64,000 bases of DNA from Candidatus Marinacidobacterales bacterium (GTDB lineage Bacteria; Acidobacteriota; Vicinamibacteria; Marinacidobacterales; DATDRI01): assembly GCA_965226495.1 (NCBI GenBank), contig OZ245365.1, positions 2,304,001-2,368,000 on the forward strand, written 5' to 3'. Made by a program: the position numbers and the translations under genes. Shown here piece after piece: positions 36,521-51,765 of this stretch (position 1 is its first letter; each line of letters opens with the position of its first letter). The notes below the pieces were generated by a model, which had not been told where the DNA came from, searched no databases, and saw nothing but the letters and a program-made list of their open reading frames with translations.

Positions 36521-38580
36521 GCGAGCGCGGTCTCCTGGTGACGCTTGAATCGTCCCGACGGCCCGCCGTGACCGGCGTCCATGTTGGTTTTCAATATCAG
36601 AACGTTGTCATCGGTCTTCAGGGCTCGTAGCTTCGCCACCCACTTTGCGGGCTCCCAGTACTGCACTTGGGAATCGTGGAGCCCGGCGGTGATCAGCAAG
36701 TGTGGGTAATCTTTAGCCTCGACGTTGTCATAGGGCGAGTAGGACAGCATGTAGTCGTAATATTCTTTGTCATTGGGATCGCCCCACTCGTCGTACTCGC
36801 CGGTGGTAAGGGGAATGTCGGGGTCGAGCATCGTTGTAACCACATCGACGAAAGGTACATCCGCGACCACTCCTTCGAAAAGCTCGGGTGCCATGTTTAC
36901 GACCGCACCTATCAGCAGGCCGCCGGCGCTTCCGCCCATCGCGAAAAGCCGGTCTTTACTCGTGTAACCTTCCGCGACCAAATACTCGCCACAGTCGATG
37001 AAGTCGGTGAAAGTGTTTTTCTTCGTGAGAAGCTTGCCATTTTCGTACCATTGACGTCCGAGCTCCTGGCCGCCACGAATATGGGCGATGGCGTAGGCGA
37101 AGCCGCGCTCCAGGAGGCTCAACCGCGACGAGCTGAAGGTGGGGTCCATCGACATGCCATAGGAACCGTACGCGTAGAGGAGTAGCGGCGCGCTCCCGTC
37201 CTTTTTCGTGCCCTTGGGGAAGACGATGGAGATGGGCACCTTCTTGCCGTCTCTCGCCACGGCGTGGAGACGCTCGGTGCGGTAGTCGGTGGAGTCAAAA
37301 TCACCGACCACCTCGTCCTGCTTGAGCAAAATTTTCTCCTTCGTCACCATGTCGTAATCGTAGGTCGACCACGGAGTGGCCATGGATGAATAGCCGTAGC
37401 GTAAGACCCGGCTGCCGAGCTCCCGGTTCGTGCTGGTGTAGGCGAAATAGGCCGGCTCTCCGAAATCCAGGTAGTGTTCATGACTACCGTCCCAAGGAAT
37501 GACGCGGATGTGATTGAGTCCGTCCTCGCGCTCGGTCACCACCAGGAAGTCCTGGAAGAGATCGTAGTCCCTCAAGAATACGTCGGTGCGGTGGGGGATG
37601 ACTTCGCGCCACTTCTTCTTGTCGGTGTTGGCGAGGGCAGTTTCCATGAGCCGGAAGTTCGGTGCTTCCCAGTTGGTTCGGATATAGAACTTGTCGGCCA
37701 GGTGCTCGACGGAATACTCGTGATTCGGCTCCCTCGGTAGGATAACCTTGAACTCACCGGTCGGGTTCGCCGCCTCGAGGTAGCGATACTCGGTGCTGAG
37801 CGTCTGGGAGGTGCCGATAATGAGGTACTTCCGCGACTTGGTCCTCGAGATGAAGCAGCTGAATTCTTCATCGGCTTCCTCGTATACCAAGGCATCTCTG
37901 GTCGGATCGGTGCCTAGGACGTGCCGATAGATTCGATCGGATCGCAGCGTCTCGGGGTCCTGCTTGGTGTAGAAGATCGTCTTGTTATCGTTGGCCCAGG
38001 CGACGTTCCCGGTCACGTCGGGAAGGACGTCGTCGTACATCTCCCCGGTTGTGAGGTTCTTGAAGCGCAGCGTATAGAACCGTCGCCCGACGGTATCGAC
38101 GCTGAAGGCGAGAACGTCCCGGCCCGAGCTCACCGACAGGGTGCCGAGCGAGAAGAAGTCGTGCCCCTGGGCGAGCTCGTTGGCGTTGACCATGATCTGC
38201 TCTGGCGCGTCGAGGGAGTCTTTCTTGCGGCCGTAGATGGCGTATTCCTCGTCTCCTTGATAGCGGTAGTAGTAGTAATAGCCGTCGTACGGGAAGGGGG
38301 CGGACGCGTCGTCTTTCTTGATGCGCCCCTTGATCTCCTCGAAGAGTGCGTCCTGCAGCTTCTCGGTGTGTTTCATAACGCCGTCGAGATAGGCGTTCTC
38401 GGCGGTTAGGTAGTCGATGACTTCTGGGTTTTCCCGCTCCTTCAGCCAGTAGTAGTTGTCGGTTCTCACGTCCCCGTGCATTTCGAGCTGATGGGGGACG
38501 ATCTTGGCTTTGGGAGGCGTGATTGTGTCCTTGGGTTCCACCAGGCTCAAGACTAGCACGGCCATTAGTAGAAGTCGCAA
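36481..38580 (-). CDS. ptrB: Oligopeptidase B (S9A)
   Basis: DNYYWL, GGSAGGLL, DSQVQYWEPAKW and AGHGG motifs. Confidence 0.95.
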   Translation of the reverse strand: MRLLLMAVLVLSLVEPKDTITPPKAKIVPHQLEMHGDVRTDNYYWLKERENPEVIDYLTAENAYLDGVMKHTEKLQDALFEEIKGRIKKDDASAPFPYDGYYYYYRYQGDEEYAIYGRKKDSLDAPEQIMVNANELAQGHDFFSLGTLSVSSGRDVLAFSVDTVGRRFYTLRFKNLTTGEMYDDVLPDVTGNVAWANDNKTIFYTKQDPETLRSDRIYRHVLGTDPTRDALVYEEADEEFSCFISRTKSRKYLIIGTSQTLSTEYRYLEAANPTGEFKVILPREPNHEYSVEHLADKFYIRTNWEAPNFRLMETALANTDKKKWREVIPHRTDVFLRDYDLFQDFLVVTEREDGLNHIRVIPWDGSHEHYLDFGEPAYFAYTSTNRELGSRVLRYGYSSMATPWSTYDYDMVTKEKILLKQDEVVGDFDSTDYRTERLHAVARDGKKVPISIVFPKGTKKDGSAPLLLYAYGSYGMSMDPTFSSSRLSLLERGFAYAIAHIRGGQELGRQWYENGKLLTKKNTFTDFIDCGEYLVAEGYTSKDRLFAMGGSAGGLLIGAVVNMAPELFEGVVADVPFVDVVTTMLDPDIPLTTGEYDEWGDPNDKEYYDYMLSYSPYDNVEAKDYPHLLITAGLHDSQVQYWEPAKWVAKLRALKTDDNVLILKTNMDAGHGGPSGRFKRHQETALAYTFLLDLLAITE

Positions 38581-38615
38581 CGAAGTGTCCTCTCTGTACG
38601 TTTAGCGCGATTTCC

Positions 38616-39629
38616 TCAGCGGCGCCAGCTCAGTCCGACGAAAGCCCCTCCGTTGCGGCGGCAAAGCTCTCGCATCAAGGTCGCGAACCGTACACCGGTG
38701 TTCTCCGGAAATCCCGACTGAGAGAACATGACCGGGAAGCCGATACCGTGGATTCGAACCAAGCGATTCCCTTGCGAATCTTCCTTGTTGATGCGATCGA
38801 CGGTCTCGACGACAGCGTCGATAGAGCGTCCGGTGAACTCGTCGCCGAAGACGTAGAGACTAATCTTCTTGTCGGGCGCGGCGTAGCGCCTAATGGCGCG
38901 CGTAATTCCTTCCACCGGGCTGCTGTTGCTGAAGGGAGACCATGTCCGGAGCCGGTCGAGAATCACTTGACGCCTCCCCGGAGTGTCCGGAATCCATCTG
39001 CCAGCGTAGTTGCTGAACATGTGCTGGCCCATGTCGTTCATGACCTGCAGACCCTTCACCTTGGGATAAATGTCGAGCGTCTCTTTCATCTTTCGGTTGA
39101 CCATGGACCAGGCGTAGTTGTGCATGCTGCCCGACGTATCGATGATAAAGATGACGTACTCACTGTCGACGGGTATCCCTCCGACGGTGGCGTCCTTGGG
39201 ATCGCGTCGATGGGCGAGACCGAGAAGCCGTTTCATCTCCTCGTTCAGCTCTTGACGTGCGGCGAGTAGGCGACCCTCCACGATATCGCTGACTTCCGAG
39301 AGCTCCTCGCTGGCCGCGTACTCCCCTCGAATCTTGGAGAAATCACCGCGGAGGCGAGCAATTCGGACGCGCTCCTTGGATACTTGCTCTTCCTTGGAGA
39401 TGAGCTTCCGATTCAGAACGTTCGTCTCGCCGCGGATCTCGTAGAGCTCTTCTTGAAGGCGGGCGACCAGGCCTTCGAGCTCGATCCGTAGCGCCTCGAG
39501 GGCGCGGGGCTCACCGATCTTGGTCAAGACCAACAACAGAATGATGGCGCCGAAGCCGCAGCAAATACAATCCAGGAAGGACAGGCTGAAGCCCGCACTA
39601 TCGCTTCGTCGTTTGGCCCTTCTCTTCAT
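38616..39629 (-). CDS. ExbD/TolR-like TM, coiled coil and vWA domain protein
   Basis: FSLSFLDCICCGFGAIILL; MIDAS IIDTSGSM; GDEF. Confidence 0.85.
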   Translation of the reverse strand: MKRRAKRRSDSAGFSLSFLDCICCGFGAIILLLVLTKIGEPRALEALRIELEGLVARLQEELYEIRGETNVLNRKLISKEEQVSKERVRIARLRGDFSKIRGEYAASEELSEVSDIVEGRLLAARQELNEEMKRLLGLAHRRDPKDATVGGIPVDSEYVIFIIDTSGSMHNYAWSMVNRKMKETLDIYPKVKGLQVMNDMGQHMFSNYAGRWIPDTPGRRQVILDRLRTWSPFSNSSPVEGITRAIRRYAAPDKKISLYVFGDEFTGRSIDAVVETVDRINKEDSQGNRLVRIHGIGFPVMFSQSGFPENTGVRFATLMRELCRRNGGAFVGLSWRR

Positions 39630-39631
39630 CC

Positions 39632-40723
39632 CTACGGCCAGTTCCGGGAAGGGCTCATGAAGGAGCCTCCGGTTGCGAGAGCGAGCTTCCAGTAGGCACT
39701 AGATGCCATCGGATCGCCCTCCATGGGAAAAAGAATGACGTTCATCGGTACCTTCGATTGAAGCGCCTTCACTGCTTCGTTGAAGAGCTTGATGCGGTCC
39801 TTGCCGGATATCGTGCTGCGCCGGGAGGGTGACCGACCCTGAGTGGGGAGGCCGTCCACGAGCAACATGATGTTGTCGGGCGCGGGTCGCAGCGTTCGGA
39901 TCGATTGAAGCGCTTGATACAGATTCGTTCCCCCCTGCGGCACGACGCTGCGAAGCTGCTGCACCGTTTCGTCGAGCACTTTTCGGTCACCGCCGTCCAG
40001 CCAGTCACCGTCCGTGCCCGGCATCACCGAGCTGACGCTGGTGTTGAAGGTGTAGATCTGAAAGCTCGAGTCCCTGGGGATTTGTGTGGTCAACCAATCG
40101 ACGGTGGCCAGCGTTTGTTGCCACTTGTCGGCGCGGATCTTGACGTGGTCGGGAAGGTTCCGGCGTCGCACTACGTTGACGATCGTCGACGCAAGCATGC
40201 TCGCGGATGCATCGACCAGGAACAGAATCCGGCGGCCTCCGACCTTGAGACCGGTGAGGTATTGCCGGTCTCCGTCCCCGACGAATGTTCGAATTTTGTC
40301 CCCGGGAGTCTCTTCGCTTGGAGCGGCTGCCGACAGTCGCTTGACGTCTTCCTCGAGAGATTTCAAATCCGCCTTCAGACGGTTGATGTGCTCTCGTTGT
40401 GCGACGGTTGAGTCCTGATAGGTGGCAAGTTCGACTCGGATCTCCTCGAGGGTTTCGATGAGGCGCCGGGAAAGTCCGGCGGTGACGACGTTTTCCTCAT
40501 CGATCTCGCGAAGCGAGTTTTTGACCTCGACGAGGTTCTGGTAGCCCTCGAGGACTTCTTCCTCCAATCGGTTGACTTCGCCCTGAAGCTCTCCGGTCAT
40601 GCGTCCCGAGATCCTGCCGAAGCTGGCGGTAACGATCATGAAGAACAGAACCACCGCGCCGAAGCCACAGGTCATGGCGTCCAAGAAGGACAGGCTGAGA
40701 ACGTTGATCCTACGGCGTGCCAT
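39632..40723 (-). CDS. ExbD/TolR-like TM, coiled coil and vWA domain protein (paralog)
   Basis: LSLSFLDAMTCGFGAVVLFF; MIDAS LVDASASM; GGTNL; LVDGLP; LALATGG. Confidence 0.85.
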   Translation of the reverse strand: MARRRINVLSLSFLDAMTCGFGAVVLFFMIVTASFGRISGRMTGELQGEVNRLEEEVLEGYQNLVEVKNSLREIDEENVVTAGLSRRLIETLEEIRVELATYQDSTVAQREHINRLKADLKSLEEDVKRLSAAAPSEETPGDKIRTFVGDGDRQYLTGLKVGGRRILFLVDASASMLASTIVNVVRRRNLPDHVKIRADKWQQTLATVDWLTTQIPRDSSFQIYTFNTSVSSVMPGTDGDWLDGGDRKVLDETVQQLRSVVPQGGTNLYQALQSIRTLRPAPDNIMLLVDGLPTQGRSPSRRSTISGKDRIKLFNEAVKALQSKVPMNVILFPMEGDPMASSAYWKLALATGGSFMSPSRNWP

Positions 40724-42173
40724 CCGAATCCATCACGGCGATGAGGCGCAGCTCGACGCCGGGAGTGCCGACTCTCAAGCGATCTCCCGCGGCGAGAACC
40801 GCCTTCGTTTCGATCCGTTTTTCGTTGAGAAAGCAACCGTAGCTGCTGTGATCCTCGAGCAAGACTCGATCGTCGAGACGATAGATGCTGCAATGGGAAT
40901 GTGAGATTCCGGCGGTCGATCCGGCTCGCTCTGCCAGGTCAATACCGCGCCTTCCCTCCGGCACCGTCAGTCCTATTACGAAAGGCTCCGACGTGATCGA
41001 GTGGGCGAGTCCTTCATATAGAACGTGTGTCGGTGCTCGCGAGCCTTGAGGGCGGTCCGTGACGACCGGAGCCGGGGGGCCCACGACGTCAGCGCTTCCT
41101 GGAATGGTATCGCTCTGTGTGATGCGGGTGACGAAGGGTAGCTCTTCTCCTGCCTCTCCAGGGTGAGCGGAGCGAAAGTGTTTGACCAACTTCAGGGCAC
41201 CTTTCGCACCGGCCGCGCCGGGGAGAGCCACTAGGTTCTCATTGGCCAGTCTCAAGAACTCCTCTAGCCCGGGAAGCTCGGTCATTCGTTTCGACAAGAG
41301 CAGGGTCGCTTGCTGCCCGGCGGGTTCCAGTGCTTTGGCGAGCCGCGCGAGGGTTTCATAGAGCGGTTGGGCACAGGCCACAATCTGCTCGCGGGTGATT
41401 TCGATTGCGTGATCCTTCCCCGCGGCCTCCATGACGAGAGTGACTCTGTCCTCTCGTTGAAGCTCGTCGAGCCATCCTGGCAGGCGAAGGTAGAGAGCTT
41501 GCTCGCTCTCACCTCGATGAAGGGGGTCGAAACGGGTGGTGCGGACGAAAACTTGAGCAATGAGCCTCACCCAAGCGTCGAACAACGCGACGAGACCGAC
41601 CTCGTCGTTTACCTCGATGCGTGCCCGCTTCACTTCGCCTCTCACTTGTGGGTCGCGCTCGACTCTCGTGGCCACCGTTCGATGCAGGTGAAGATCCAGG
41701 TGAATGGCCACGGGTGTCGGGCTGGACGCCTCGTCGGAGAGCCCGGACAGAGTGGAGGAAGCTACCGAAGAATCGATCATTCCCGTTACAGGCATCCCGC
41801 ACGCGCGGGCGATTCCTAAGACGAGTCCCAACTGTTTCTGCGAAAAACATCCGGGTATTGCCAAAACGACGTCATCGGTTCGTTCCCGAGTGGACTCCCA
41901 AATCTCTTTGAGATGGGCGTGAGCTAGATCGGCGCGCCGAAGGGTTTTGGGAAAAGGCCGAGGGAGGGGTGTCGTATCGAGCTCTTCCCAGAAGCGGTCG
42001 TATGTCCACCGCGGTTTCAGCCGGGCGCGGCTCGCCGCGTTACGTCCGGTGAGGAGGGTTTCTCCGTCCAGGACGACGACACCAGGACTAGGAGAAATGG
42101 CCCCGGTTTCCGGATCGGAATCGCGCACCGCTTCGATGCCGATGTCGTTGAGCTCTATCGCCAAAACACTCAT
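40710..42173 (-). CDS. Hsp70/actin-fold-like protein with C-terminal FHA domain
   Basis: VLAIPGCF...GIARACGMPVTGMIDSSVA parallels the DnaK VITVPAYF...AGL.V..II.EP.AA segment. FHA: ISHSHC...EDHSSYGCFLN...GDRLRVG. Confidence 0.7.
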   Translation of the reverse strand: MSVLAIELNDIGIEAVRDSDPETGAISPSPGVVVLDGETLLTGRNAASRARLKPRWTYDRFWEELDTTPLPRPFPKTLRRADLAHAHLKEIWESTRERTDDVVLAIPGCFSQKQLGLVLGIARACGMPVTGMIDSSVASSTLSGLSDEASSPTPVAIHLDLHLHRTVATRVERDPQVRGEVKRARIEVNDEVGLVALFDAWVRLIAQVFVRTTRFDPLHRGESEQALYLRLPGWLDELQREDRVTLVMEAAGKDHAIEITREQIVACAQPLYETLARLAKALEPAGQQATLLLSKRMTELPGLEEFLRLANENLVALPGAAGAKGALKLVKHFRSAHPGEAGEELPFVTRITQSDTIPGSADVVGPPAPVVTDRPQGSRAPTHVLYEGLAHSITSEPFVIGLTVPEGRRGIDLAERAGSTAGISHSHCSIYRLDDRVLLEDHSSYGCFLNEKRIETKAVLAAGDRLRVGTPGVELRLIAVMDSDGTP

Positions 42174-42178
42174 CGCGA

Positions 42179-42976
42179 CTATGAAACTCGAAGATGTTGG
42201 ATGAGGTGTTGGTCAAGGTAGGTCTCGGTGTCGGCTACCAGCCGTTCCTGTTGAAGCTGCAGCTGGTGAAGGAGGAACATGAGCACGATACTGATCAGGA
42301 GCGCGATAAAGGTGGAATTGAAAGCAACACCCAGACTTTGAGTGACGCCCGCGATGTCTCCTTCAACTGCCTTGTGCGCCTGCCCGAGGGCCTCGCCGAT
42401 ACCGCGGACGGTCCCGATGAATCCGATCGAAGGAATGGCCCACGCGATGTAGCGAACCATCGACAGCTCGGAGTCCAATCGCTCCGACTCCGCCTCGGCG
42501 ACGCCGTGAGCGGTCGTAGAGACGTCTTGAATGTTGCGTGTGGCACCGAAGCGGGCCAGCGCCGAGAGCACAGCGCGCGGAAGCAGCAGACGTTGCTGGG
42601 AATCCGGCAGGGCTTGGATCTGACGTGCATACTCGCGCGCATCTTCCGGCAAGATCTTGGTTCCCTCGGCGACGGGAACCAGATCTAGCTCGAGCAGTTT
42701 TTTCTCGCGTGCAGCGTCCGTCGCCTTGTGCGACATGATGGCCATGGCCCATAGCATCAAGACGAAACAAGATTCTTGCTCGAAGTCGCGGATGATCACG
42801 AAGACCGATCGCTCCGGAACATAGTTTTCGCCGGTCTCCATGAGTGCTTGTTGTTCAGCTAGGATGTAATCCGCTCGCGGACGAACAACGAGGACGTAGA
42901 TGGCATGCACGATGATGATGGCGACGATCAAGGACACGGTTTGGAACACGAACTCCACTGGGTATGCTTTCTTCAT
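42179..42976 (-). CDS. MotA/TolQ/ExbB proton-channel family protein
   Basis: AIPSIGFIGTVRGI and GVAFNSTFIAL motifs. Confidence 0.92.
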   Translation of the reverse strand: MKKAYPVEFVFQTVSLIVAIIIVHAIYVLVVRPRADYILAEQQALMETGENYVPERSVFVIIRDFEQESCFVLMLWAMAIMSHKATDAAREKKLLELDLVPVAEGTKILPEDAREYARQIQALPDSQQRLLLPRAVLSALARFGATRNIQDVSTTAHGVAEAESERLDSELSMVRYIAWAIPSIGFIGTVRGIGEALGQAHKAVEGDIAGVTQSLGVAFNSTFIALLISIVLMFLLHQLQLQQERLVADTETYLDQHLIQHLRVS

Positions 42977-42990
42977 TCGCCAAGCACCTT

Positions 42991-43224
42991 TCAGATGTCT
43001 ACCGGGAACGAGATGGCGCTATCAACGGGAACCTTCTCCGAGGGGGTGAAGGACTCCAGCTCTTCTTCTTGTTGTGCTTTTGTTTTGGAGTCCTTCTCCT
43101 GTGAAGAGGGCTCCTCCGCTTCTTTGCTTTCAGGCGGTTCACTAGGTGGGGGTGACTGTTGGGTTCCCATCACCGCGCCACCCGCGATCGCGGTGGCCAG
43201 GATCGTATAGAGCAAATATCTCAT
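42991..43224 (-). CDS. Small exported protein ending FTPSEKVPVDSAISFPVDI
   Basis: Signal peptide, acidic/Pro linker and compact C-terminal motif; AGGA RBS; lies within the operon. Confidence 0.75.
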   Translation of the reverse strand: MRYLLYTILATAIAGGAVMGTQQSPPPSEPPESKEAEEPSSQEKDSKTKAQQEEELESFTPSEKVPVDSAISFPVDI

Positions 43225-43244
43225 CGGTCGTTCCTCGTCTTTAA

Positions 43245-43503
43245 TGCATCAGTGCGCGCTCACTCTTCGTTCGCGCGCTTGGCCTCGCTCCTCGCTCGGC
43301 TTCTCGCTGTCGGCCCACTCGGGCCGGGCTCGCTCCGCTCGCGAGGGTGCGGTGAATTTCGTGAGCACCCTCTCGTGCATCAGTGCGCGCTCAGTCATTA
43401 ATTGATGGCGCGGGGCCCCACCCCCACGCCTCATGCTCCGTCGACTGGCGACTGCGCATGGGCTCATGGCTGTCGCTTCCGCGGGGCGCCACCCCCACGG
43501 CTC
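43245..43503. repeat. Cluster of REP-like intergenic repeats
   Basis: 18-bp direct repeat TGCATCAGTGCGCGCTCA (43245, 43376); 24-bp repeat CGCGGGGC.CCACCCCCACG.CTC (43409, 43480); CTCGCTCC motifs. Confidence 0.7.
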
Positions 43504-43557
43504 GTCCCTTCGCCGACAAGCGGCTGCGGGACGGCTGACGGCTCTGCTCGGCGTGTA

Positions 43558-45972
43558 TCATTCGGCGTATCGGGCTATTCTAAAGCCCAAATCGGGCCGT
43601 GGCTTATTGCCGTAGTCGCGATAGCTGAGCCGCAATTCGGTAACGCTGCCGTCCATCCAGCTCGACCCGCGGATCGCGTAGAGCTCGCCCTCTTTTGGCC
43701 CCAGTGGATCCTTGGCTATTTCGGCTCCGGATGGATAGATGGTGTAATAGTCGTGCATCCACTCCGCAACGTTCCCGCCCAAGTTCAATATTCCTAGCGG
43801 ATTAGGCGGAAAGCCCTCCGCCGGAGCCGTTGCGGGGTAAGAATCGTCGTACTGGGGGAGTGTGGTCGGGACCAAGCCGCGTGCAGACGCGTCGGCATAG
43901 TTGCCGGAGTTGGCGGCCACTGGGAGAGAGTCGCCCCATGGGTACTTTCGTCCCGCTTGACCGTCTGGGTAACGGGCGACGCGAACCCACTCGGCTTCCG
44001 TCGGCAGACGGTAACCCATGGTGGGCGGCACCACTGCGACGAGGCTTCCCCCGCGTGAGTCGTATGCCGGAGGCCACGATTCTTTTTGGCTCAGCCAATT
44101 GCAGTATCGCGCCGCGGCCGACCAGGTGACGCGGACGACGGGATGGTGATCGATATCCAAGTTCAGCCCGGCCACGCGTCCCGAACGATGCTTCGGATCG
44201 AGCTTACGAAACTGTTGGTTGGTCACTTCCTGCACCGCAAGATAATAACGTCGCGACAGCTCGACCTCGCGGAGGGTCTCGTTGGCACGCCGTCCTGGTT
44301 CGCGTCTCGACGCTCCCATGCGGAAACGGGCGGGCTGGATGAGACGTAACTGGTGGCCTTCCGAAGTGGTGATCACAGCCGGCGTCAATGCCGCCTTGGC
44401 TTCTTCGAGCGTTCTCAGGGTTACTTCGATCGATTGTGGAAAGCCTGGCCTTGGTGTGAGCGTGGTGGTAAACGCTTCGTAACCCTCTTTGCGTACTTCG
44501 ATCTGTTGGGGCAGGGCGACGAGGCTTAGTGTTTGGTTAGCCGAGCCTCGCTCCTCGCCATTCACATACAACACCGCATCCGGCGGATCGCTGACCACTT
44601 CCAATTTTCCGAGCAGAGGGGCGAGCTCGATACTCAGGGTTTGCTCACTCCCGGATTCGATTCGCGCTTCCTGTGTCTGCGTTTCGTAGCCAGCTCGGGA
44701 CACTTCGACTTGATGGCCCACTCTCGGCTGCAAGTCGACCGTCAACGGAGTCTCTCCGCTATAGACGCCATCGACTGTCACGGTGGCTCCGGGTGGGTTG
44801 CTCTCGACGGTCAGCAGTCCGTCCGCCACCGTGAGCCGAGCAGTGGGGAGAGTCTGCGCCTCACCCGCGACCACGGCGAGTCCACTTCGATACGGTTTAT
44901 GTCCTTTCAGCATAAGCGTGAAAGTGTGAGCGCCTTCCATGAGATCCGCCGTTAATGGCGTGCTGCCGATCCCCAGGCCGTTGACCTCCACGGTTGCGCC
45001 CGGAGGTTGGGATGTGAACGAGATAGCGCCCCAGCGCGGTTCGAGCACCGCGTCGAGAGTCTCGGTGCTTCCGGCGCCCTCAATGTGCACGCGGGTCAAG
45101 AAGTCTTTGTGGTTTTCGGCGCGGATCAACACTTCGTGCTCGCCAGGGGGAAGCTCTAGTTCCGCGACCGGGGTGACGCCGATCTCCTCGCCGTCTATCG
45201 TTACGACTGCGCCTTCCGATGGCACCGTCGATAACACGAGGACGCCGGGCCGTTTCGTGAGGACGAAGAGCAGGCGTTGGTTCCGCTCATCGGTGACGGT
45301 CACCTCCGTCTCGACCGGTCGATAACCTTCCTTTTCGATGACCACGGTGTGTTTGCCTTGTCGAAGCATGTATCGCCCACCGAGCTCGAGTTTGAAATAG
45401 GTGTTTTGGAAATCGATTTGCGCTTCCCCGGGCTCGGTTTCGACCAGGACCGATCGCGCGGTGAAGACGAAATACGCTGCCGCTGCCAAAAGAGCGAGAG
45501 ACGTCCAGAGAACAACCTCACGGGTGCGGATGGGGGGACGCTCCCGGTGGGTAGGCCCGACGCGGACTGGCTCGAACGCAATCGGTTTGACCGCTGCCCC
45601 GGAGATATCGGACGTCCCGGGCATCCCGGAAGGGGGGTGTTCGGTGGGAGGAAGGACCGGCGGATCGGTTTTCTGCGCCGTCTTCCATTTCTCGACGCGG
45701 AGGCGAATCTGCTCCTCTCCAAACTCGACGCTAACCTGCATCTTCCCGATCCGGACGACATCTCCGTCTCGCAGCCACCGAGATGTTTTCAGTAGCGTGC
45801 TATTGCAAAGGATCGGTAAATCGGAGCTCGCCGGCTGTACGAAGAGCTCTCCGTCGGCGGACCCGATATGGGCGCTGGTCTGGGCTCCGGGACTCCTGGG
45901 AAGCGCGAGCGGAAACTCGTCGGGTCTCACCCGTCGCGTGCCGCTTTCATCAACGAGGTAAACGGGTAGCAT
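43558..45972 (-). CDS. FHA-like, TM, multiple PEGA and FGE-sulfatase (SUMF1) domain protein
   Basis: WLRDGDVVRIG; about five S.P.GA.V.VDG..G.TP repeats; FRMGAS, YRLPTEAEW, GNVAEW and GFRIAR motifs. Confidence 0.9.
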   Translation of the reverse strand: MLPVYLVDESGTRRVRPDEFPLALPRSPGAQTSAHIGSADGELFVQPASSDLPILCNSTLLKTSRWLRDGDVVRIGKMQVSVEFGEEQIRLRVEKWKTAQKTDPPVLPPTEHPPSGMPGTSDISGAAVKPIAFEPVRVGPTHRERPPIRTREVVLWTSLALLAAAAYFVFTARSVLVETEPGEAQIDFQNTYFKLELGGRYMLRQGKHTVVIEKEGYRPVETEVTVTDERNQRLLFVLTKRPGVLVLSTVPSEGAVVTIDGEEIGVTPVAELELPPGEHEVLIRAENHKDFLTRVHIEGAGSTETLDAVLEPRWGAISFTSQPPGATVEVNGLGIGSTPLTADLMEGAHTFTLMLKGHKPYRSGLAVVAGEAQTLPTARLTVADGLLTVESNPPGATVTVDGVYSGETPLTVDLQPRVGHQVEVSRAGYETQTQEARIESGSEQTLSIELAPLLGKLEVVSDPPDAVLYVNGEERGSANQTLSLVALPQQIEVRKEGYEAFTTTLTPRPGFPQSIEVTLRTLEEAKAALTPAVITTSEGHQLRLIQPARFRMGASRREPGRRANETLREVELSRRYYLAVQEVTNQQFRKLDPKHRSGRVAGLNLDIDHHPVVRVTWSAAARYCNWLSQKESWPPAYDSRGGSLVAVVPPTMGYRLPTEAEWVRVARYPDGQAGRKYPWGDSLPVAANSGNYADASARGLVPTTLPQYDDSYPATAPAEGFPPNPLGILNLGGNVAEWMHDYYTIYPSGAEIAKDPLGPKEGELYAIRGSSWMDGSVTELRLSYRDYGNKPRPDLGFRIARYAE

Positions 45973-48305
45973 CAAATCTCTTCCTCGCAGCGAACGACGA
46001 GTGGGGAAAGTGAGTTGCCGGCTTCGACGACGAGTTTCAGGCGAACATCGCGGTAGCCTGGCCGGCTTCCAACGACCGTGTAGGTGCCCGGACGAAGCTG
46101 GAGGGTATGTTGATCGAACCTACCCAACCGGCCGACTTTGTAGACGACGATTTCGGTTTTATTGTCCGATTGGAGTTGAACGGGAATCAGCGTCGACGCG
46201 TCGCGGATGGTTTTGTCGAGCGTACGTCGTTGTTGTTCGAGGCGCGGCCCCGACGGCTCGATTTGAGATGCGGTCTCGAGAACAGCAGACGCGGTTTGAA
46301 GCACCTTGATGTCAGAAAGGCGCTCGGCATTCTTGATATGGAAATCCAGTTGATCCGAGAGCGCGGCCCGACGGTCGGTCTTCTCCTTGCCCTCTTGAGC
46401 GAATCGAATCGTAGCGTCCAACTCGAGGACCGCGTCGTAGTGCTCGGCCGCCTTGTGCCACTCTTCTCTCGATTCGAGGTCCGCGGCGTTCTCGCGATGG
46501 AGGGCTATTACCTGAAGCCGCAGACCTTCTTCTGCTTGCGCGATCCCTTCTGCAACCTGGGCGGCGGCGCGCGGTTTGATACTGCCGGCTCGCTGGAAGG
46601 CTTCGCGCGCGGCTCGATAGTCTTCACGGTTGATAGCGGAGACACCCTCGGACATAGCCGCACGAAAGGCACCATCGGTCATGGCTCGTTCGACGCGGCC
46701 CAATGCGTCCCTGGCTGACCGCGACGCAGAGTCTAAAGAGAGTCCTTTCTTGTAGCTGTCAGCCGCTTGGTCTAGATCGCCATTCCTTTCGTGCTCCGCA
46801 CCCTGCGCGAGCAATGACACGACTTCATTGGAGACGCCCGCTCGCCTTAGACCGGCGAGCGCGGTTCGATTGTTGGGATCGACCTGCATGGCAAGCTCGA
46901 AGGCGACCCTGGCCGCGCCCGAGTCACCGCTGGCGAGGGCTGTCTGTCCATCGGCCAAGGCTTGACGTAAGACCTCTACGGCTCGAGAGGACAAGGTCTG
47001 AAAGCCGGCGACCGCCTCTTCATAGGCCTCGAGAGCGTGCGCATACTCGCGACCGCGGAGTTGATCGTCACCCCGATCGAGGGCGGCCATCGCGGCGGGG
47101 TATTTTTCGCCGCCCCAAATCGAGACGCTCTTTGCCTGGAGCTCGTCGCGCCACCGGACGGCGGCCTCGCGTGCTTGTTCGGCGAGTGTCTTAAGCTCCG
47201 CTTCCTGTCGCAGATCGGAAACGGCCGAGGGCTGGACGTTCTGAATTCGCTCAGGGGGGGGAAGGGATGACGCCGGTCCGTGGGACGGATCACCCTGCAT
47301 AGACTGCCTGGCCGGCGACCCGCTAGGTGCCCAACGGGGGAGGAAGACGAAGACGGCGATGGTGGCGAGAATGAGGACCCCGAGGGTGGCAATTGTCGTC
47401 CATCCCAAACCGCCGCCGGAGGATACTCTCGATCGAATCGGCGCAGCTCCGGGCGGGGCTGCCGGTTTGATCTTCTCGATGCGCGGCGGTGGCGTGACGT
47501 TTATTTTCGATGGCACTCTCGACGGGACTGCCGGCTTGGCCCTTGGAGAAATTGGCCCGACGACCGACTTCCTGATCGACGCCAGGGTTGCCTTGACCTC
47601 TGCCATATCGTTTGGACGGTCTGCGGGGTCGTCGCTGAATAAGGACGCCAATAGCGACGTGAGCTCCTCCGGCAACTGTGGGTGATCGCTCAAGAGATCA
47701 TAGAGGAGAGCGCCTAACGCATAAATGTCGTCGGCGCGCGTCGGCTCGTCGCCGGCGCGTTGCTGCGGGCTCATGCTGGAAGGCGATCCCCCACCGGAGA
47801 TTTCCGAAGGGGTCGACCGCGAGTCGAGCAACCCGGCGATGCCGAAGTCGAGCAACTGTGGCTCGCCGTGTCGATCCAACAAGACGTTGGCCGCTTTGAG
47901 ATCGCGGTGTACGACGCCTTGCCGGTGCGCGTAATCGAGCGCATGCGTCACCGGTAGCAGTACGTCCAAGATCTCTTCTAAGGGATGACCTCGAAGCTGA
48001 CCAATGTCTTCTCCCTCGACGTATGCCATGGAGATGAAGCGGACGCCTTCTTCGTCGTGCACGTCGTAGACGCGTACGATGTTCGGGTGAACGAGGCCAC
48101 GAGCATTCCGGCACTCGCGTTTGAGAAGCGCTACCCGTTCGTCGGAGTATCCCTGCGCATCATCCGGCGCGAGCACTTTGACGACGACCTGCTCTTCGAG
48201 CTCCTGGTCCTCGACCAGCCAGACTTCGCCCATTCCTCCCTGGCCGAGAGGACGGATTAGGGTAAAGCGTCGGCCGAGTGATTGGCCACGGGCCAGCGCC
48301 GCCAT
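45972..48305 (-). CDS. Ser/Thr kinase with TM helix, TPR region and a PEGA-like C-terminus
   Basis: GQGGMG, VVVK, HRDLKAAN and DFG motifs; TM helix; helical repeats; LRPGTYTVVGSRPGYRDVR. The start may be 48353. Confidence 0.88.
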   Translation of the reverse strand: MAALARGQSLGRRFTLIRPLGQGGMGEVWLVEDQELEEQVVVKVLAPDDAQGYSDERVALLKRECRNARGLVHPNIVRVYDVHDEEGVRFISMAYVEGEDIGQLRGHPLEEILDVLLPVTHALDYAHRQGVVHRDLKAANVLLDRHGEPQLLDFGIAGLLDSRSTPSEISGGGSPSSMSPQQRAGDEPTRADDIYALGALLYDLLSDHPQLPEELTSLLASLFSDDPADRPNDMAEVKATLASIRKSVVGPISPRAKPAVPSRVPSKINVTPPPRIEKIKPAAPPGAAPIRSRVSSGGGLGWTTIATLGVLILATIAVFVFLPRWAPSGSPARQSMQGDPSHGPASSLPPPERIQNVQPSAVSDLRQEAELKTLAEQAREAAVRWRDELQAKSVSIWGGEKYPAAMAALDRGDDQLRGREYAHALEAYEEAVAGFQTLSSRAVEVLRQALADGQTALASGDSGAARVAFELAMQVDPNNRTALAGLRRAGVSNEVVSLLAQGAEHERNGDLDQAADSYKKGLSLDSASRSARDALGRVERAMTDGAFRAAMSEGVSAINREDYRAAREAFQRAGSIKPRAAAQVAEGIAQAEEGLRLQVIALHRENAADLESREEWHKAAEHYDAVLELDATIRFAQEGKEKTDRRAALSDQLDFHIKNAERLSDIKVLQTASAVLETASQIEPSGPRLEQQRRTLDKTIRDASTLIPVQLQSDNKTEIVVYKVGRLGRFDQHTLQLRPGTYTVVGSRPGYRDVRLKLVVEAGNSLSPLVVRCEEEI

Positions 48306-48324
48306 GGAGCTCCGGTCGCGCGCC

Positions 48325-49551
48325 TCAGGGATTGGATGGCCCCGGCTCGGCAAGCGGTGTCTCGGAGTTGGGATCTATGGGGAGTCCGGTTTCGGAAGCA
48401 AAGATTTTGCGAAGGAGATTACGCCAAGTCGTGTATTGGGTTTCGACGGATCCGGTTAGTCGGGTGACCTCGCCTTCCATATCGATGAGCAGGGGAGCGA
48501 TGTCCGCATCCAAGGAGGCGGCGAGCTCCTTGAGAGCCTCGCGGTGCATCTTGGCTTCTTCCATTTTGGACATCCCGTCGGCCATGACCATCCCGCCGAT
48601 GACGGACACACCGCCCCTTCTGGTGGCGATTCCACCGGCCATGGCTCCAACGCCGGCGAGCATTCTGATCCAGGCTTCTTTCCTCATCCGAGCAAGCCTG
48701 ACCTCTTCTTCGTAGCTGAAGGCTCTCCAGTCGTCATAGGGTGCGTCCATCTTCAAGTAGAAGTTGGCGTAGAACTCGTTCAGCGTGTCGATGAACATGA
48801 AATCCCGCTCGCGAATGTCGTTGACGCGCACCATCATCGGATCGCCGTGCGCCGGGAGCTTCTCGATCGAGTACCGCCCTTTCTTGTCGACTTTCAAATA
48901 TTCCTCGAACGGAGTCGGTGCTAGGTCCACCGCGAACTTGAGCTGTGACAGCAAGCGCACTTGCTGGATGTCTTTTTCGTCGAGCTTCCGTCGCTTCTCG
49001 AGGATATCGTTGGCGATCTCGTTATAAAGAAACTGATAAGGGTCTGGTTGCTCGGCGATACCCCTCTTCTTGGTGTAGGCGCTCACGCTGGCTTCTCGCT
49101 TGTACCGTTTCTTCAACCAACTTTGGCCGCGAGCGTCTAGGACGTGGATCTCGACCTCGAGGTTCTTTCCGTGCGACTTCCGGATGGTGCCGGACACCAT
49201 GACGTCCACCGCGTTCGCGGCGGGGACCACGCGAACCGCGCCCCAGTAACCCGTTGACTGAAGCGTTTGCTTCAACTGGAAGGGGATGTATCGAGCCTCG
49301 GATTTCCTCACGTCCGGAAAGACACCCTTTTCTTCCAAGTCGAAGAGGGCCTCCTCGTCTTCCGGCAAGCCGGGGTCGAACACGTGGATGCCGACGTCAA
49401 GAAGTTGTTCCTCGGGAATCTCGGTTTGCGCTTGGATGAGCTCAACCGGATCCTTGTTGCCGGCGTGTGTAGGCGAGGCGGTCAGGAACCCCAGCGCGAC
49501 AAAAGCCACAGGCACTATCAGTATTCGGGGTATGGAAAGTCGGCTCGGCAT
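48325..49551 (-). CDS. Exported hypothetical protein (operon member)
   Basis: Signal peptide; globular region FPDVRKSEARY...WGAVRVVP; Gly-rich amphipathic segment near the C-terminus. Confidence 0.8.
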   Translation of the reverse strand: MPSRLSIPRILIVPVAFVALGFLTASPTHAGNKDPVELIQAQTEIPEEQLLDVGIHVFDPGLPEDEEALFDLEEKGVFPDVRKSEARYIPFQLKQTLQSTGYWGAVRVVPAANAVDVMVSGTIRKSHGKNLEVEIHVLDARGQSWLKKRYKREASVSAYTKKRGIAEQPDPYQFLYNEIANDILEKRRKLDEKDIQQVRLLSQLKFAVDLAPTPFEEYLKVDKKGRYSIEKLPAHGDPMMVRVNDIRERDFMFIDTLNEFYANFYLKMDAPYDDWRAFSYEEEVRLARMRKEAWIRMLAGVGAMAGGIATRRGGVSVIGGMVMADGMSKMEEAKMHREALKELAASLDADIAPLLIDMEGEVTRLTGSVETQYTTWRNLLRKIFASETGLPIDPNSETPLAEPGPSNP

Positions 49552-49554
49552 CGT

Positions 49555-50550
49555 TTAGCTCCCTTTCTCGGTGCCTCGCTTATAGGCTCGGTACTCCTCC
49601 CATAGTCTCTCACGAAGTTTCGGGTCGTCTTCTTGCGTGGCCGCTTCGCGCAGCTGCCTGGCTACGATGTCATCGCCGCTACCGTCGCCAACGTCGGGGG
49701 GGACACGACCGTTGTCCGACTCGCCCTCGGCCCCTCCGACGGGAGCGCCTGGAGACGAGTCCACCGGCTCTCCGTCGGGGGCATCCGGTGATCCGCCGGT
49801 GCCACCCGCGATCTGTGTTGCGCGTCGTTCAGCATCGGCACCGTCGGCAGAGTCGGCACCGCCGTCGCCTACTCCACCCGAGGATCCCCCGGCCCCGCTG
49901 TCACCACTCGCCGCCGCGGCTGCTTCTCGCTGCTGCTCCAGGAGCTCTTGTTCGCTCAGGAGCAGCTTGTCGAACTCGCTGAGTGACGAGTCCAAGTCTT
50001 TATCGAGGCCGGCGCGTTTTTCTTCCGTCGTCTTGGGCCCGCCCCCGCCGCCTTTCGAAGCACCGCCGGGTTTGGCGCCCGACGGCGGTGTTCCTCCGGA
50101 AGTCTTTCCCGTCGCACCGGCGTTACCCGATTTACCTGCGCCAGCGGAGCTCGGTTTGGACGCGGTCGCCTCACCCTTGGAGGACTCCCCGGCTCCAGGC
50201 TGCGCCCCGGCTTCGGCGCTCGTTTCGGTCCCGGAGGATGAGCCGTCCTCGCTATCTTCGCCTTTCGCACCGTCTTCACTGGAGCTCGTGCCTCCGGCCT
50301 CCGTTCCTTCTCCCTTTTTCGTTTCGCTTGGGGTCGAAGGTTCGCTCGATGACGGTGTGGAAGGTGGCGTCGTGGATGGTGGCGCCGGCGAAGGTGAAGG
50401 CTTTGAGGGAGGGCTCGGCACCGACGGGGGCGAGGGTAAAGAAGGTACCGAAGGGGTCGATGAACGACTCGAGCATCCCGCCACAACGAAAAGCAGAATG
50501 CCTAAGCCAGCCAGTCTCACGGTCCCGTCAACGCTCTTTGTGACGTTCAT
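49555..50550 (-). CDS. Low-complexity lipoprotein with C-terminal DDIVARQLREAA...LWEEY helix motif
   Basis: Lipobox VAGC; long P/S/G-rich linker; first gene of the operon. Start is uncertain. Confidence 0.75.
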   Translation of the reverse strand: MNVTKSVDGTVRLAGLGILLFVVAGCSSRSSTPSVPSLPSPPSVPSPPSKPSPSPAPPSTTPPSTPSSSEPSTPSETKKGEGTEAGGTSSSEDGAKGEDSEDGSSSGTETSAEAGAQPGAGESSKGEATASKPSSAGAGKSGNAGATGKTSGGTPPSGAKPGGASKGGGGGPKTTEEKRAGLDKDLDSSLSEFDKLLLSEQELLEQQREAAAAASGDSGAGGSSGGVGDGGADSADGADAERRATQIAGGTGGSPDAPDGEPVDSSPGAPVGGAEGESDNGRVPPDVGDGSGDDIVARQLREAATQEDDPKLRERLWEEYRAYKRGTEKGS

Positions 50551-50979
50551 TAGATGCACCTTTCCAGTGTGGACGCCCCATCGGAACACCCTCATGGTAC
50601 CTCAAAGTGCAAATTCAAGGCCAGTAAGGGGGATCGGTGAGGCGCGGTAGGGGGGGACCCTAATCGATACTTATCTAATACTTTAGGGCTACGGGTCGCC
50701 GCGCCACGACTGCGTGTCAGGGTTCTCCCTCATCGGGATCCAGGACGAGCCGTCCACCCCCGATGACATTACCGCGAAAGCGCGATCCGTGGGCTTTTCA
50801 CCTCTCGCCCGCTGACGATGTATTAAAGCTCGCCTTTGCCTGAGCCGGGCCGACCGTCCATCCCCTCCTCAATGCGAGCATCGAGAAAAGGAGCCGAGTG
50901 ATCTGATGGCGGGCATGTTGACACAAAATCTGCCGCGGGGGACACTACTTCTTAACCTTCTTATAAGGAGAACAACAGC

Positions 50980-51720
50980 GTGAAGCGCACGGAACGGCAT
51001 CATTTGAAGCAGAACGACCTGCTCCACTGGTTGGAACAATTCGCCGGTTGGGCCGCTGAGAACCGCTCCTCTCTGAAGACCGGGGCCATTGCGGTTCTGC
51101 TTGCGGCCGTCGTAGTTGGAGGCATCTACGTCTATCGCCACGGTCGGGATCAGACGGCAGATACCGCCCTCAGCGAAGCACTGGAGGTCTACCACGGGGT
51201 GGTGCGCGAGAACACGATCATCTCGGGACCCGACGCGGGACCGACCTTCAACAGCCAGGAGGAACGCTACATTGCGGCGCTCGAAGCGCTCGAGGAGGTC
51301 GAGCAGAAGTACACTGCCATCAAGCAAGGAAGGGAAGCGCGCTACTACATGGCACTTTCGAAGGCAGGGCTTGGCGAGCTCGAGGAGTCGGAAGGGCTCT
51401 TGGAACACGTCGTCGACAAGCGAGGAGATCTACTTTATTACCTCGCGTCTCAGACTCTGGCTACGGTGAAGGCGGATCGGGGGGATCACGCGGCTGCGGC
51501 AGAGGTGTATCGGACACTCGTGGACGATGCGAAGGGGCCGCTTCCGAAAGACCAACTCCTGTTCCGGATGGCAGAGCAGTTGGAAGCGGACGGCAAACTG
51601 CAGGAAGCGCGACAGGCTTATGAACGGTTTCTCGAAGAGTATCCGACATCTTCGCTTCGCAGCCAGGCGGAACAGAAAAGCGAGCTCCTGGAGTTTCGGT
51701 TGAATGGCTCTCCCGCATAG
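50980..51720 (+). CDS. Membrane-anchored TPR protein (YfgM-like)
   Basis: MKRTERHHLKQN, TM helix, TPRs and EEYPTS; AAGGAG RBS. Confidence 0.85.
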   Translation: MKRTERHHLKQNDLLHWLEQFAGWAAENRSSLKTGAIAVLLAAVVVGGIYVYRHGRDQTADTALSEALEVYHGVVRENTIISGPDAGPTFNSQEERYIAALEALEEVEQKYTAIKQGREARYYMALSKAGLGELEESEGLLEHVVDKRGDLLYYLASQTLATVKADRGDHAAAAEVYRTLVDDAKGPLPKDQLLFRMAEQLEADGKLQEARQAYERFLEEYPTSSLRSQAEQKSELLEFRLNGSPA

Positions 51721-51765
51721 CCTGCCTGTAATAGTCAAGACTGCCAAGACTGTCACGAGGGAATA

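Follow-up and report, generated by a model that had tools for sequence, protein, structure and literature searches.

Nine co-oriented genes on the minus strand (g1 to g9, 38616–50595) of a 64,000-nt stretch of DNA from a Candidatus Marinacidobacterales bacterium (assembly GCA_965226495.1, contig OZ245365.1, positions 2,304,001–2,368,000; this whole stretch is called the window below) are predicted to encode a machine of the cell envelope that has at its centre a proton-driven motor of the 5:2 type known from TolQ, ExbB and MotA. A probability of roughly 0.6 is given to this reading. In the proposed machine, the product of g6 would form the channel ring, and the paralogous products of g8 and g9 would take the place of the usual TolR/ExbD/MotB dimer, with an aspartate in the membrane helix of each (D15 and D20, respectively) binding protons. 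The two helices would extend into a parallel coiled coil that bears two periplasmic von Willebrand factor A (vWA) heads, each with a metal ion-dependent adhesion site (MIDAS). Proton flow through g6 would turn or ratchet this g8/g9 axle, and the vWA heads would pull or otherwise displace an acidic ligand close to the outer membrane, for which the C-terminal peptide of g5, the conserved C-terminal helix of g1 and the g2 protein are candidates. The g4 protein, with five PEGA stretches and an FGE fold resembling that of PorK/GldK, and the TPR part of g3 would act as periplasmic scaffolds anchored in the inner membrane, with g1 and g2 joining them as a scaffold or load on the periplasmic and outer-membrane side. 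Control would be exerted from the cytoplasm, where the g3 kinase would make a phospho-site and the FHA domain of g7 would recognize it, gating either assembly or activity.

The assignment of g6 to the channel family is based on a Pfam match to MotA_ExbB (E 8.2e-14). Its motif PxxGxxGTVxGI and the residues T189 and T222 do not vary among 39 sequences. These motifs align with those of the ExbB (hhalign probability 82%) and the TolQ (88%) encoded by the same genome, at positions that presumably correspond to the threonines lining the proton path in ExbB and TolQ. The same genome carries a separate TolQ-TolR-TolA-like locus and a TonB-ExbB-ExbD-ExbD locus, and since these ordinary Tol and Ton loci are kept, the g6 system would be a third motor and not a replacement for either.

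The g8 and g9 proteins are paralogues with 27% identity and are built alike: a basic N-terminus precedes a membrane helix that carries the motif SLSFLDxxxCGFGA, and a coiled coil of about 90 residues leads on to a vWA domain. The latter is matched by VWA_3 in g8 (E 2.7e-7) and only by VWA_2 in g9 (E 0.011), and the DxSxS motif is invariant in both. In 38 sequences of each protein, the aspartate of the membrane helix is invariant and the MIDAS residues are invariant or nearly so; the site is intact in g8 (D171-x-S173-x-S175, T266, D290) and comprises D164-x-S166-x-S168 and D263 in g9. Because the N-termini are basic, an N-in topology with periplasmic heads is predicted for both proteins. An earlier description of the locus made from the sequence alone, referred to here as the preliminary description, had called the pair ExbD-like; the Asp-bearing membrane helix bears this out, whereas no ExbD domain is detected in either protein with Pfam, and the helices contain no His and so no SHLS/His motif. 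A g8/g9 profile run against solved structures gave a best E of 0.0064 to a coiled-coil-type match that is not meaningful. When the g8–g9 complex was modelled from custom alignments, the median ipSAE of three runs was 0.75 and the highest value among three controls was 0.00; in calibration, 58 of 80 solved complexes attained this mark, as did 2 of 110 mismatched pairs. The runs share at least 77% of contacts with a partner pLDDT of at least 74, and the modelled interface runs in register through the membrane helix, the coiled-coil heptads and the C-terminal strands of both heads. Pairing of g8 with g9 is supported by this model.

The gene set is conserved as a unit. Among 41 sampled genomes of the order of the window (its own genome included), g7 is present in 21, which by family and without the own genome amounts to 5 of 7, 15 of 17 and 0 of 16. 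In the 20 kb fetched around 14 of these matches, g1–g4 and g6–g9 occur in the same order and on the same strand in all 14 relatives, and g5 was picked up by tblastn in 13 of them and through its C-terminal motif in the 14th. A cross-phylum set was obtained by searching 185,579 species genomes with a pattern for the N-terminal motif of g8/g9 and taking the best 80 loci from 550 confirmed stretches among at least 600 matches (individual loci are numbered with the prefix L below). The Acidobacteriota among these 80 loci are Vicinamibacteria, Holophagae, Thermoanaerobaculia, 'Candidatus Marinacidobacterales' and 'Candidatus Sulfomarinibacter'; the Gammaproteobacteria are Steroidobacteraceae (including the cultured Steroidobacter and Peristeroidobacter), Woeseiaceae, Lysobacterales, Sedimenticolaceae and others; and further loci belong to Desulfobacterales, Myxococcales and Kiritimatiellia. 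The genes g8 and g9 are adjacent in 80/80 loci. All eight large genes are found in 46 of them, collinear in 45 and rearranged in one, and the remaining loci are cut by contig ends. Syntenic conservation, on which the preliminary description had made its proposal depend, is therefore seen for one unit across at least five phylum-level groups, and conservation of gene order across phyla places the arrangement far beyond chance.

The median identity to the window is highest for g6 (64%; range 51–94% in 75 loci), g9 (60%) and g8 (51%; range 48–91% in 80 loci), followed by g4 (42%), g2 (41%), g3 (36%) and g7 (35%). As g6, g8 and g9 are the best conserved, the channel and the vWA pair make up the constrained core. 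In the one rearranged locus (L068, from a Myxococcales metagenome-assembled genome), g6–g9 and g1–g4 still lie next to each other but as two convergent blocks, and an ORF (open reading frame) with the g5-type motif lies just upstream of g6, i.e. in the g6–g9 block. The kinase motifs of this locus read HGG and DLG and the FHA signature of its g7 is lost, an arrangement that suggests two modules and a non-catalytic kinase there. The distribution is patchy: a g8 profile retrieved 525 representatives at E <= 1e-30 among 1.84 billion cluster representatives, and g8 was found at E <= 1e-20 in 5 of 301 genomes of an even phylum sample that includes the genome of the window. Together with a cross-phylum identity of 50–80%, this patchiness suggests that the whole operon may move between lineages. 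No copy of g8 was found in the plasmid collection searched, and no conserved flanking gene recurs across phyla.

A motor core of this design has already been predicted computationally. The second family of vWA proteins described by Williams-Jones et al. (Mol Biol Evol 2025; PMC12204202) consists of TolQ-like motors with paired trans-pore-helix (TPH) vWA proteins, which the text of that paper characterizes by tolQ homologues without tolR or exbD, heterologous vWA pairs, a TolR/ExbD-like helix with an Asp, and a ring of Thr in AlphaFold 3 models. That text places the TPH-vWA family mainly in Proteobacteria and Verrucomicrobia and states its function to be unknown. The window shares with it a tolQ-type g6 that has no tolR, exbD or motB beside it (no match to ExbD, MotB or OmpA families with Pfam at E <= 0.1 or with NCBIfam), a membrane-tethered vWA pair adjoining the channel gene, an invariant helix Asp in the absence of an SHLS/His motif, and a conserved Thr in the channel. 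By these sequence-level features, the motor core would belong to the TPH-vWA/TolQ-like class, with the present locus as its acidobacterial member. The locus differs in its acidobacterial origin and in its extent, as the section of PMC12204202 on this family covers the motor and the vWA pair whereas nine genes are present here. In the main text of that paper, neither 'kinase' nor 'Acidobacteri' occurs and 'FHA' occurs only within 'FhaC', while its Fig. 4c and supplements may show neighbouring genes. The g5 peptide, the Hsp70-type nucleotide-binding domain fused to FHA, the PEGA-FGE protein, the protein with a TolB-N/PelC fold and the kinase switch are accessories that the main text does not describe, with the same proviso for Fig. 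4c and the supplements. The prior prediction of the core design in PMC12204202 limits the novelty of the system, and the view of the preliminary description that no characterisation existed does not hold for the motor core, which is described there by computation. A literature search for a TolQ-like motor with vWA found this paper only, and searches for the wider gene set (MotA/ExbB with vWA, FHA and kinase/FGE) found no paper on this system. The available text of PMC12505986, on the evolution of the MotAB stator, does not mention vWA or FHA, and further candidates (Ferrigenium preprint, PMC7159879) are, as far as their available text goes, unrelated to the system.

The cytoplasmic control layer is formed by g3 and g7. 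The g3 protein contains a cytoplasmic Hanks-type Ser/Thr kinase domain (Pkinase, E 2.2e-31), one membrane helix, a periplasmic TPR region (TPR_2, E 5.2e-10) and a C-terminal end that resembles a beta-sandwich. The catalytic motifs are intact in the window (the Lys of VVVKVL, HRDLKAAN and DFG). Compared with most orthologues, the window and the loci closely related to it (L016, L018, L020, L021) lack about 38 residues of the kinase C-lobe. Some orthologues exhibit degenerate kinase motifs (HGD, HGG, GFG, DFS, DYD). In most of the loci where no kinase is detected, the space between g2 and g4 amounts to 1.15–1.8 kb versus 2.4 kb in the window and is too short for a kinase. Kinase-less examples are L033, L035, L036, L048, L052, L059, L072, L083 and L089, in which the TPR part of g3 is kept, and many of the kinase-less loci are also without the N-terminal FHA-like domain of g4.

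The AlphaFold 2 (AF2) model of g7 (pLDDT 87.6, pTM 0.71) has the nucleotide-binding domains of Ssz1, Hsp72 and DnaK as its top Foldseek matches (E 7e-19 to 1e-16, target TM of about 0.7). The actin fold named in the preliminary description is thereby confirmed and refined to that of an Hsp70 nucleotide-binding domain, which has no HSP70 match in Pfam. The C-terminal FHA domain is matched by Pfam with an E of 2.1e-9. The protein differs from Hsp70 chaperones in that this FHA domain stands in place of the substrate-binding domain and in that the phosphate-2 loop is altered: the stretch reads HLDLHLHR at the site where Hsp70 proteins carry their Gly-rich second phosphate loop. The altered loop makes ATP hydrolysis by g7 doubtful. 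The best conserved motif of the protein is TRFDPLHxxxxEQxLY. The FHA signature of g7, G[IVL]SRxH, follows the kinase in the 67 loci that have the whole of g3 on the contig. Where the kinase is present, the signature is intact in 40 loci and altered in 1, with no FHA domain found in 2; where the kinase is not detected, these numbers are 5, 16 and 3. The contrast is repeated inside Acidobacteriota, Desulfobacterales and Gammaproteobacteria. This covariation supports the proposal that the g7 FHA domain reads a site made by the kinase of the operon, and it strengthens the phosphorylation control put forward in the preliminary description. Since both the kinase and g7 can be lost, the regulatory layer is dispensable and accessory, and the core is made up of g2, g5, g6, g8 and g9 together with the TPR region of g3 and the periplasmic portion of g4.

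The remaining proteins face the envelope. The g1 protein contains a lipobox (VAGC) and a long linker rich in Pro, Ser, Gly and Glu, and it ends in a conserved helical segment of some 45 residues. The lipobox is present in 26 of the 43 orthologues with a complete 5' end, cross-phylum conservation is confined to residues ~297–342 (59–81% identity), and no Pfam or NCBIfam family is matched. For g2, the AF2 model (pLDDT 82.1) places residues 42–196 in the lipoprotein fold of TolB-N/PelC/FlgT/LptE/PqiC/DUF330, followed by a long helical hairpin (238–348) that contains a Gly-rich loop. Structural comparison with VIA-align gave a Z of 12.3 to 8z5n_5 (root-mean-square deviation (rmsd) 5.4, 170 residues aligned), 11.7 to TolB (7mx5_B; rmsd 2.6, 101 aligned) and 11.3 to PelC (5t10_A), and Foldseek matches ranged from E 5e-5 to 1e-2. 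Many lipoproteins with the TolB-N/PelC/FlgT/LptE fold form rings and associate with the outer membrane. In the order of the window g2 has a plain signal peptide, and in most other lineages it carries a lipobox, which is found in 36 of 63 orthologues by regular expression and in a few more by eye; as its presence varies by lineage, the membrane attachment of g2 differs between lineages. The name DUF2884, carried automatically by the nearest ESM Atlas clusters, has no Pfam support and is kept only as a lead.

The g4 protein is composed of a degenerate FHA-like N-terminal domain in the cytoplasm, one membrane helix, five PEGA stretches (E 2.3e-60) and a periplasmic FGE fold (FGE-sulfatase, E 2.8e-37). 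The nearest NCBIfam model to the FGE domain is GldK/PorK (E 2.3e-24), with 86.5 bits against a cut-off of 350. The domain (545–805) contains a single Cys, and the stretch that would correspond to the catalytic pair reads RGSSWMDGSVTELRLSYRD. With one Cys only, g4 differs from formylglycine-generating enzymes, which have the catalytic Cys pair, and is unlikely to be a catalytic enzyme of this kind. The N-terminal 100 residues match FHA in Pfam below threshold (E 0.22) and align with the g7 FHA domain by hhalign at a probability of 86%. The FHA call of the preliminary description for g4 is qualified accordingly; its kinase, TPR, PEGA, FGE, MotA_ExbB, g7 FHA and g8 vWA calls are all matched by Pfam, and the vWA call for g9 follows from its paralogy to g8 and its DxSxS motif.

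The small g5 protein consists of a signal peptide, an acidic low-complexity linker and an invariant C-terminal peptide of the form F-x-P-[ST]-E-x-[VI]-x-A-D-x-x-[VI]-x-F-P-x-D-I-COOH. In all of the 82 loci whose sequence extends 300 nt or more upstream of the MotA-like gene g6, an ORF ending in [FLY]PxD[IT]-stop lies ahead of this gene. Positions outside this search pattern are conserved as well, namely F(-19) and P(-17) in 82/82 loci each, E(-15) in 75/82 and D(-10) in 66/82. Because it is secreted and conserved solely in its 19-residue C-terminal peptide, g5 appears ligand-like, with the MIDAS heads and the TPR region of g3 as candidate receptors.

Tol-Pal is one of the known systems closest to the operon. 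A TolQ-family channel, a partner that would reach into the periplasm, a TolB-N fold (g2), a lipoprotein (g1) and TPR (g3) are common features, and by analogy the machine may exert force toward the outer membrane that depends on the proton motive force. Its components differ from those of Tol-Pal in that TolR/ExbD, the C-terminal domain of TolA/TonB, the SHLS helix, the TolB beta-propeller and an OmpA-like Pal are absent here, and in the presence of a vWA-headed axle and a kinase/FHA layer. The Ton system differs in having ExbD and TonB_C, which are absent here, and the score of g6 against ExbB is low (18.9 bits versus 135). The flagellar stators MotAB and PomAB differ likewise, as no MotB or OmpA match is found and neither the operon nor its immediate neighbours contain a flagellar family. 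The preliminary description had stated that the operon lacks tonB, tolA, tolB, pal, flagellar and type VI secretion system (T6SS) core genes, and Pfam and NCBIfam give no match to the TonB, TolA, TolB, Pal, ExbD, MotB, flagellar or T6SS core families in the nine proteins. As it had also held, the set matches none of Ton, Tol-Pal, the flagellar stator, Agl-Glt, Zorya, the type IX secretion system (T9SS) or the T6SS phosphorylation pathway.

As a best guess, the machine would tether or remodel the outer membrane much as Tol-Pal does, drawing on the proton motive force. This role is ranked, again as a best guess, ahead of surface adhesion or gliding, followed by pure signalling and then by defence. 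A bolder version would make the operon a self-contained and phospho-gated alternative to Tol-Pal, in which the vWA metal sites grip the FPxDI-COOH end of g5 or the g1 helix and reel in or patrol outer-membrane lipoproteins, g7 switches on the motor after phosphorylation by g3, and the whole operon is transferred between phyla. Taken as a whole, this version is rather unlikely.

Several observations weigh against the reading of the operon as a proton-driven and phospho-gated machine. On the side of the motor, g6 reaches only 29.5 bits against the NCBIfam model for TolQ (cut-off 221) and 18.9 bits against that for ExbB (cut-off 135), gives no meaningful sequence match to solved chains including MotA, ExbB and TolQ (best E 0.75), and may have three or four membrane helices. 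Paralogues can pass the test applied to the g8–g9 complex, and the model does not distinguish a heterodimer from two homodimers. The operon does not encode any outer-membrane protein in which an anchoring or channel domain of a known kind is present, and the load is consequently not identifiable from it. On the side of control, the kinase domain is not detected by tblastn in 24 of the 67 loci with the whole of g3 on the contig, g7 is missing from two loci in which g6 abuts g8 (L069, L100), and no phosphatase is encoded in the operon. The covariation of kinase and FHA signature is a pattern among related, non-independent genomes and not a statistical test. The g7 of the window itself reads GISHSHC at 421–427, with His for Arg, versus GISRSHC in relatives of the same genus and G[IV]SRxH[CLF] in 40 other kinase-bearing loci, and the N-terminal domain of g4 is without the Gly-Arg and Ser-x-x-His signature of phospho-binding.

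Part of this evidence would fit a transmembrane signalling complex, in which the periplasmic vWA, TPR, PEGA and FGE domains sense a ligand or damage, the MotA-like g6 serves as a gated channel or as a sensor of the proton motive force, and the output is phosphorylation by g3, read by FHA, with targets elsewhere. Such a complex would resemble PpkA/Fha1/TagR without the T6SS. The set of kinase, FHA, FGE-fold, vWA and lipoprotein parallels the T6SS threonine-phosphorylation pathway, and the PpkA-Fha1-TagR system of the Pseudomonas H1-T6SS likewise combines a Hanks kinase with a periplasmic sensor, an FHA reader, an FGE fold, lipoproteins and vWA. PpkA carries a vWA domain. Phospho-gating of a membrane machine is likely to be shared with this pathway. 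The differences are that T6SS core genes are absent here, that the match to VI_FHA (TagH-type) reaches 24.4 bits versus 120, that the vWA domain would sit on the motor axle and not on the kinase, and that the gated machine would be a MotA-family motor. The intact kinase motifs of the window, the tracking of the kinase by the g7 FHA signature and the lack of an encoded load or outer-membrane channel are compatible with signalling as the end of the system. Against it, the kinase is undetected in 24 of the 67 loci and degenerate in others while the motor, the vWA pair, g5, g4 and g2 persist; kinase signalling cannot be the core function when the kinase is lost and the core stays. The genes g6, g8 and g9 are moreover the most conserved, with the Asp and Thr of the proton path invariant, and no transcription factor or output domain is present. 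Signalling as the main purpose of the operon is thus unlikely.

The features of g4 and g2 would also suit a drive for surface motility or adhesion, a small counterpart of GldLM-GldKN or Agl-Glt in which the vWA axle engages a periplasmic ring of g4 and g2 and moves an adhesin encoded elsewhere. The closest NCBIfam model to the FGE domain of g4 is that of GldK/PorK, as given above, and the fold of g2 is that of ring-forming periplasmic lipoproteins, with matches of the PelC, FlgT and CsgG type. The T9SS/gliding motor GldLM (PorLM) is of the 5:2 class, and its long periplasmic shaft is thought to engage a ring that contains an FGE-fold protein. The vWA adhesin CglB acts in myxobacterial gliding. 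In the text of PMC12204202, a role in gliding is raised for the first family of vWA transducers (TolA/TonB-like) and not for the TPH-vWA family. Membership of the T9SS is contradicted by the anchoring of g4, which is by a helix followed by five PEGA stretches and not as a lipoprotein, by its GldK score of 86.5 bits, far below 350, and by the absence of any match to GldL, GldM, GldN, Sov/SprA or a translocon family. No adhesin or outer-membrane translocon is encoded in or beside the operon in 14 of 14 relatives, and no flanking gene is conserved across phyla. A motility drive therefore has a low probability.

A Zorya-type anti-phage defence, in which the MotA-like motor would sense a perturbation of the envelope and trigger a response, is very improbable: it has in its favour that the motor belongs to the MotA family, is not flagellar and has an unusual partner subunit, as well as a weak PADLOC match of g6 to ZorA (E 0.0013), matches of the g3 kinase to defence-kinase models such as PD-T4-6, and a patchy distribution (5/301 phylum genomes) with a high cross-phylum identity that suggests horizontal transfer, whereas the PADLOC kinase matches are those of generic Hanks kinases, no peptidoglycan-binding ZorB, long ZorA tail, ZorC, ZorD, ZorE, nuclease, protease, NADase or other effector is found, the neighbours are housekeeping genes, plasmid copies are absent from the collection searched, and retention of g7 in 20 of 24 sampled genomes of two families of the order fits vertical inheritance. 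Of the roles that the preliminary description had listed for the operon, defence is consequently unlikely, and so is secretion because no outer-membrane channel is encoded. Within the reading of the operon as a proton-driven envelope machine, its role may be motility or adhesion, or the tethering of the envelope.

The layout of the operon is given in the table below. The genes g1–g9 abut or overlap, with junctions of -29 to +14 nt, and the sole exception is the g4/g5 spacer, in agreement with the preliminary description of nine co-oriented and mostly abutting or overlapping genes; all nine minus-strand ORFs exist. The spacer gave 122 high-scoring segment pairs (self included) by blastn against its own genome, which identifies it as a dispersed repeat. 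It holds two copies of a 17-mer at a distance of 131 nt, and three more copies occur elsewhere. The gaps from g4 to g6 are much shorter in relatives, where the spacer repeat is absent.

Features of the nine-gene operon in the window (positions are those of the window)
Feature	Position	Strand	Description
g1	49555–50595	-	ORF open to 50595; likely start 50550, as orthologues start at the internal Met (MNVTK...)
g2	48325–49551	-	408 aa; exported protein
g3	45972–48353	-	793 aa; start 48353 or 48305; kinase-TM-TPR (TM, membrane helix)
g4	43558–45975	-	805 aa; FHA-like-TM-PEGA x5-FGE
g4/g5 spacer	43225–43557		333 nt; dispersed intergenic repeat, not a part of the machine
g5	42991–43224	-	77 aa; small secreted protein
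g6	42179–42976	-	265 aa; channel subunit of the TolQ/ExbB/MotA family, presumed pentameric motor part
g7	40710–42173	-	487 aa; Hsp70 nucleotide-binding domain fold (1–335), disordered linker, FHA (380–480)
g8	39632–40723	-	363 aa; membrane helix with Asp15, coiled coil, vWA
g9	38616–39629	-	337 aa; g8 paralogue of the same plan, with Asp20

No Rfam family is matched in 36000–52000. Scans for promoters and terminators gave counts at or below the shuffled expectation and are uninformative on the ends of the operon. No RNA sequencing run is listed for this DNA, for which 20 runs from 7 studies carry DNA. None of the nine proteins has a family of its own in NCBIfam, and antisense ORFs across the region were set aside as artefacts of high GC content. 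The neighbours in the window are housekeeping genes, encoding MutS, an SppA/S49 peptidase, a member of the arginase family, TPR_21, MarR, a methyltransferase and an S9 peptidase. The last of these, a gene of the prolyl-oligopeptidase family (36481–38580; Peptidase_S9_N, E 6.7e-112), lies on the same strand directly downstream of g9. Of the 14 relatives, just 2 have such a gene after g9, and it was therefore rejected as a tenth gene of the operon.

Other genes are found beside the operon in some of the loci. A tenth co-oriented gene encoding a lipoprotein of ~220–360 aa lies downstream of g9 in 15 loci (L047, L054, L064, L065, L074, L082, L084, L085, L094, L098, L101, L104, L105, L108 and L109), and a 16th member of this cluster (L091) is located at a contig start on the minus strand and not after g9. 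The loci that carry this lipoprotein are mostly gammaproteobacterial or proteobacterial. Beyond it lies a convergent TPR gene with a C-terminus that appears TonB_C-like by eye. The lipoprotein and TPR clusters comprise 16 loci each and are overlapping, not identical, with L061, L067 and L081, for example, added by the TPR set. At the other end, a gene of ~490 aa is found beside g1 in seven loci of a sister family (L020–L023, L026, L027 and L029), and its product resembles cardiolipin synthase/phospholipase D by eye only.

Ion-driven motors of the 5:2 class provide the energy for flagella and gliding, for nutrient import and type IX secretion, for the stability of the outer membrane and for one phage defence system, and each new set of motor partners has opened a new route for membrane energy to the envelope. 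In the present operon, the partner subunit itself bears binding heads of the integrin type, and the order of its nine genes is shared by Acidobacteriota, Gammaproteobacteria, Desulfobacterales, Myxococcales and Kiritimatiellia. Handles on the system that go beyond the main text of PMC12204202 are the invariant g5 peptide as a candidate ligand, the model-supported g8–g9 pairing, the folds assigned to g2 and g7, and the covariation of kinase and FHA signature, which argues for a phospho-switch. As cultured carriers (Steroidobacter, Peristeroidobacter) exist, the system is open to genetics. If the self-contained alternative to Tol-Pal were true, the operon would represent a force transducer of the envelope that belongs to a new class and has a ligand peptide and a clutch of its own.

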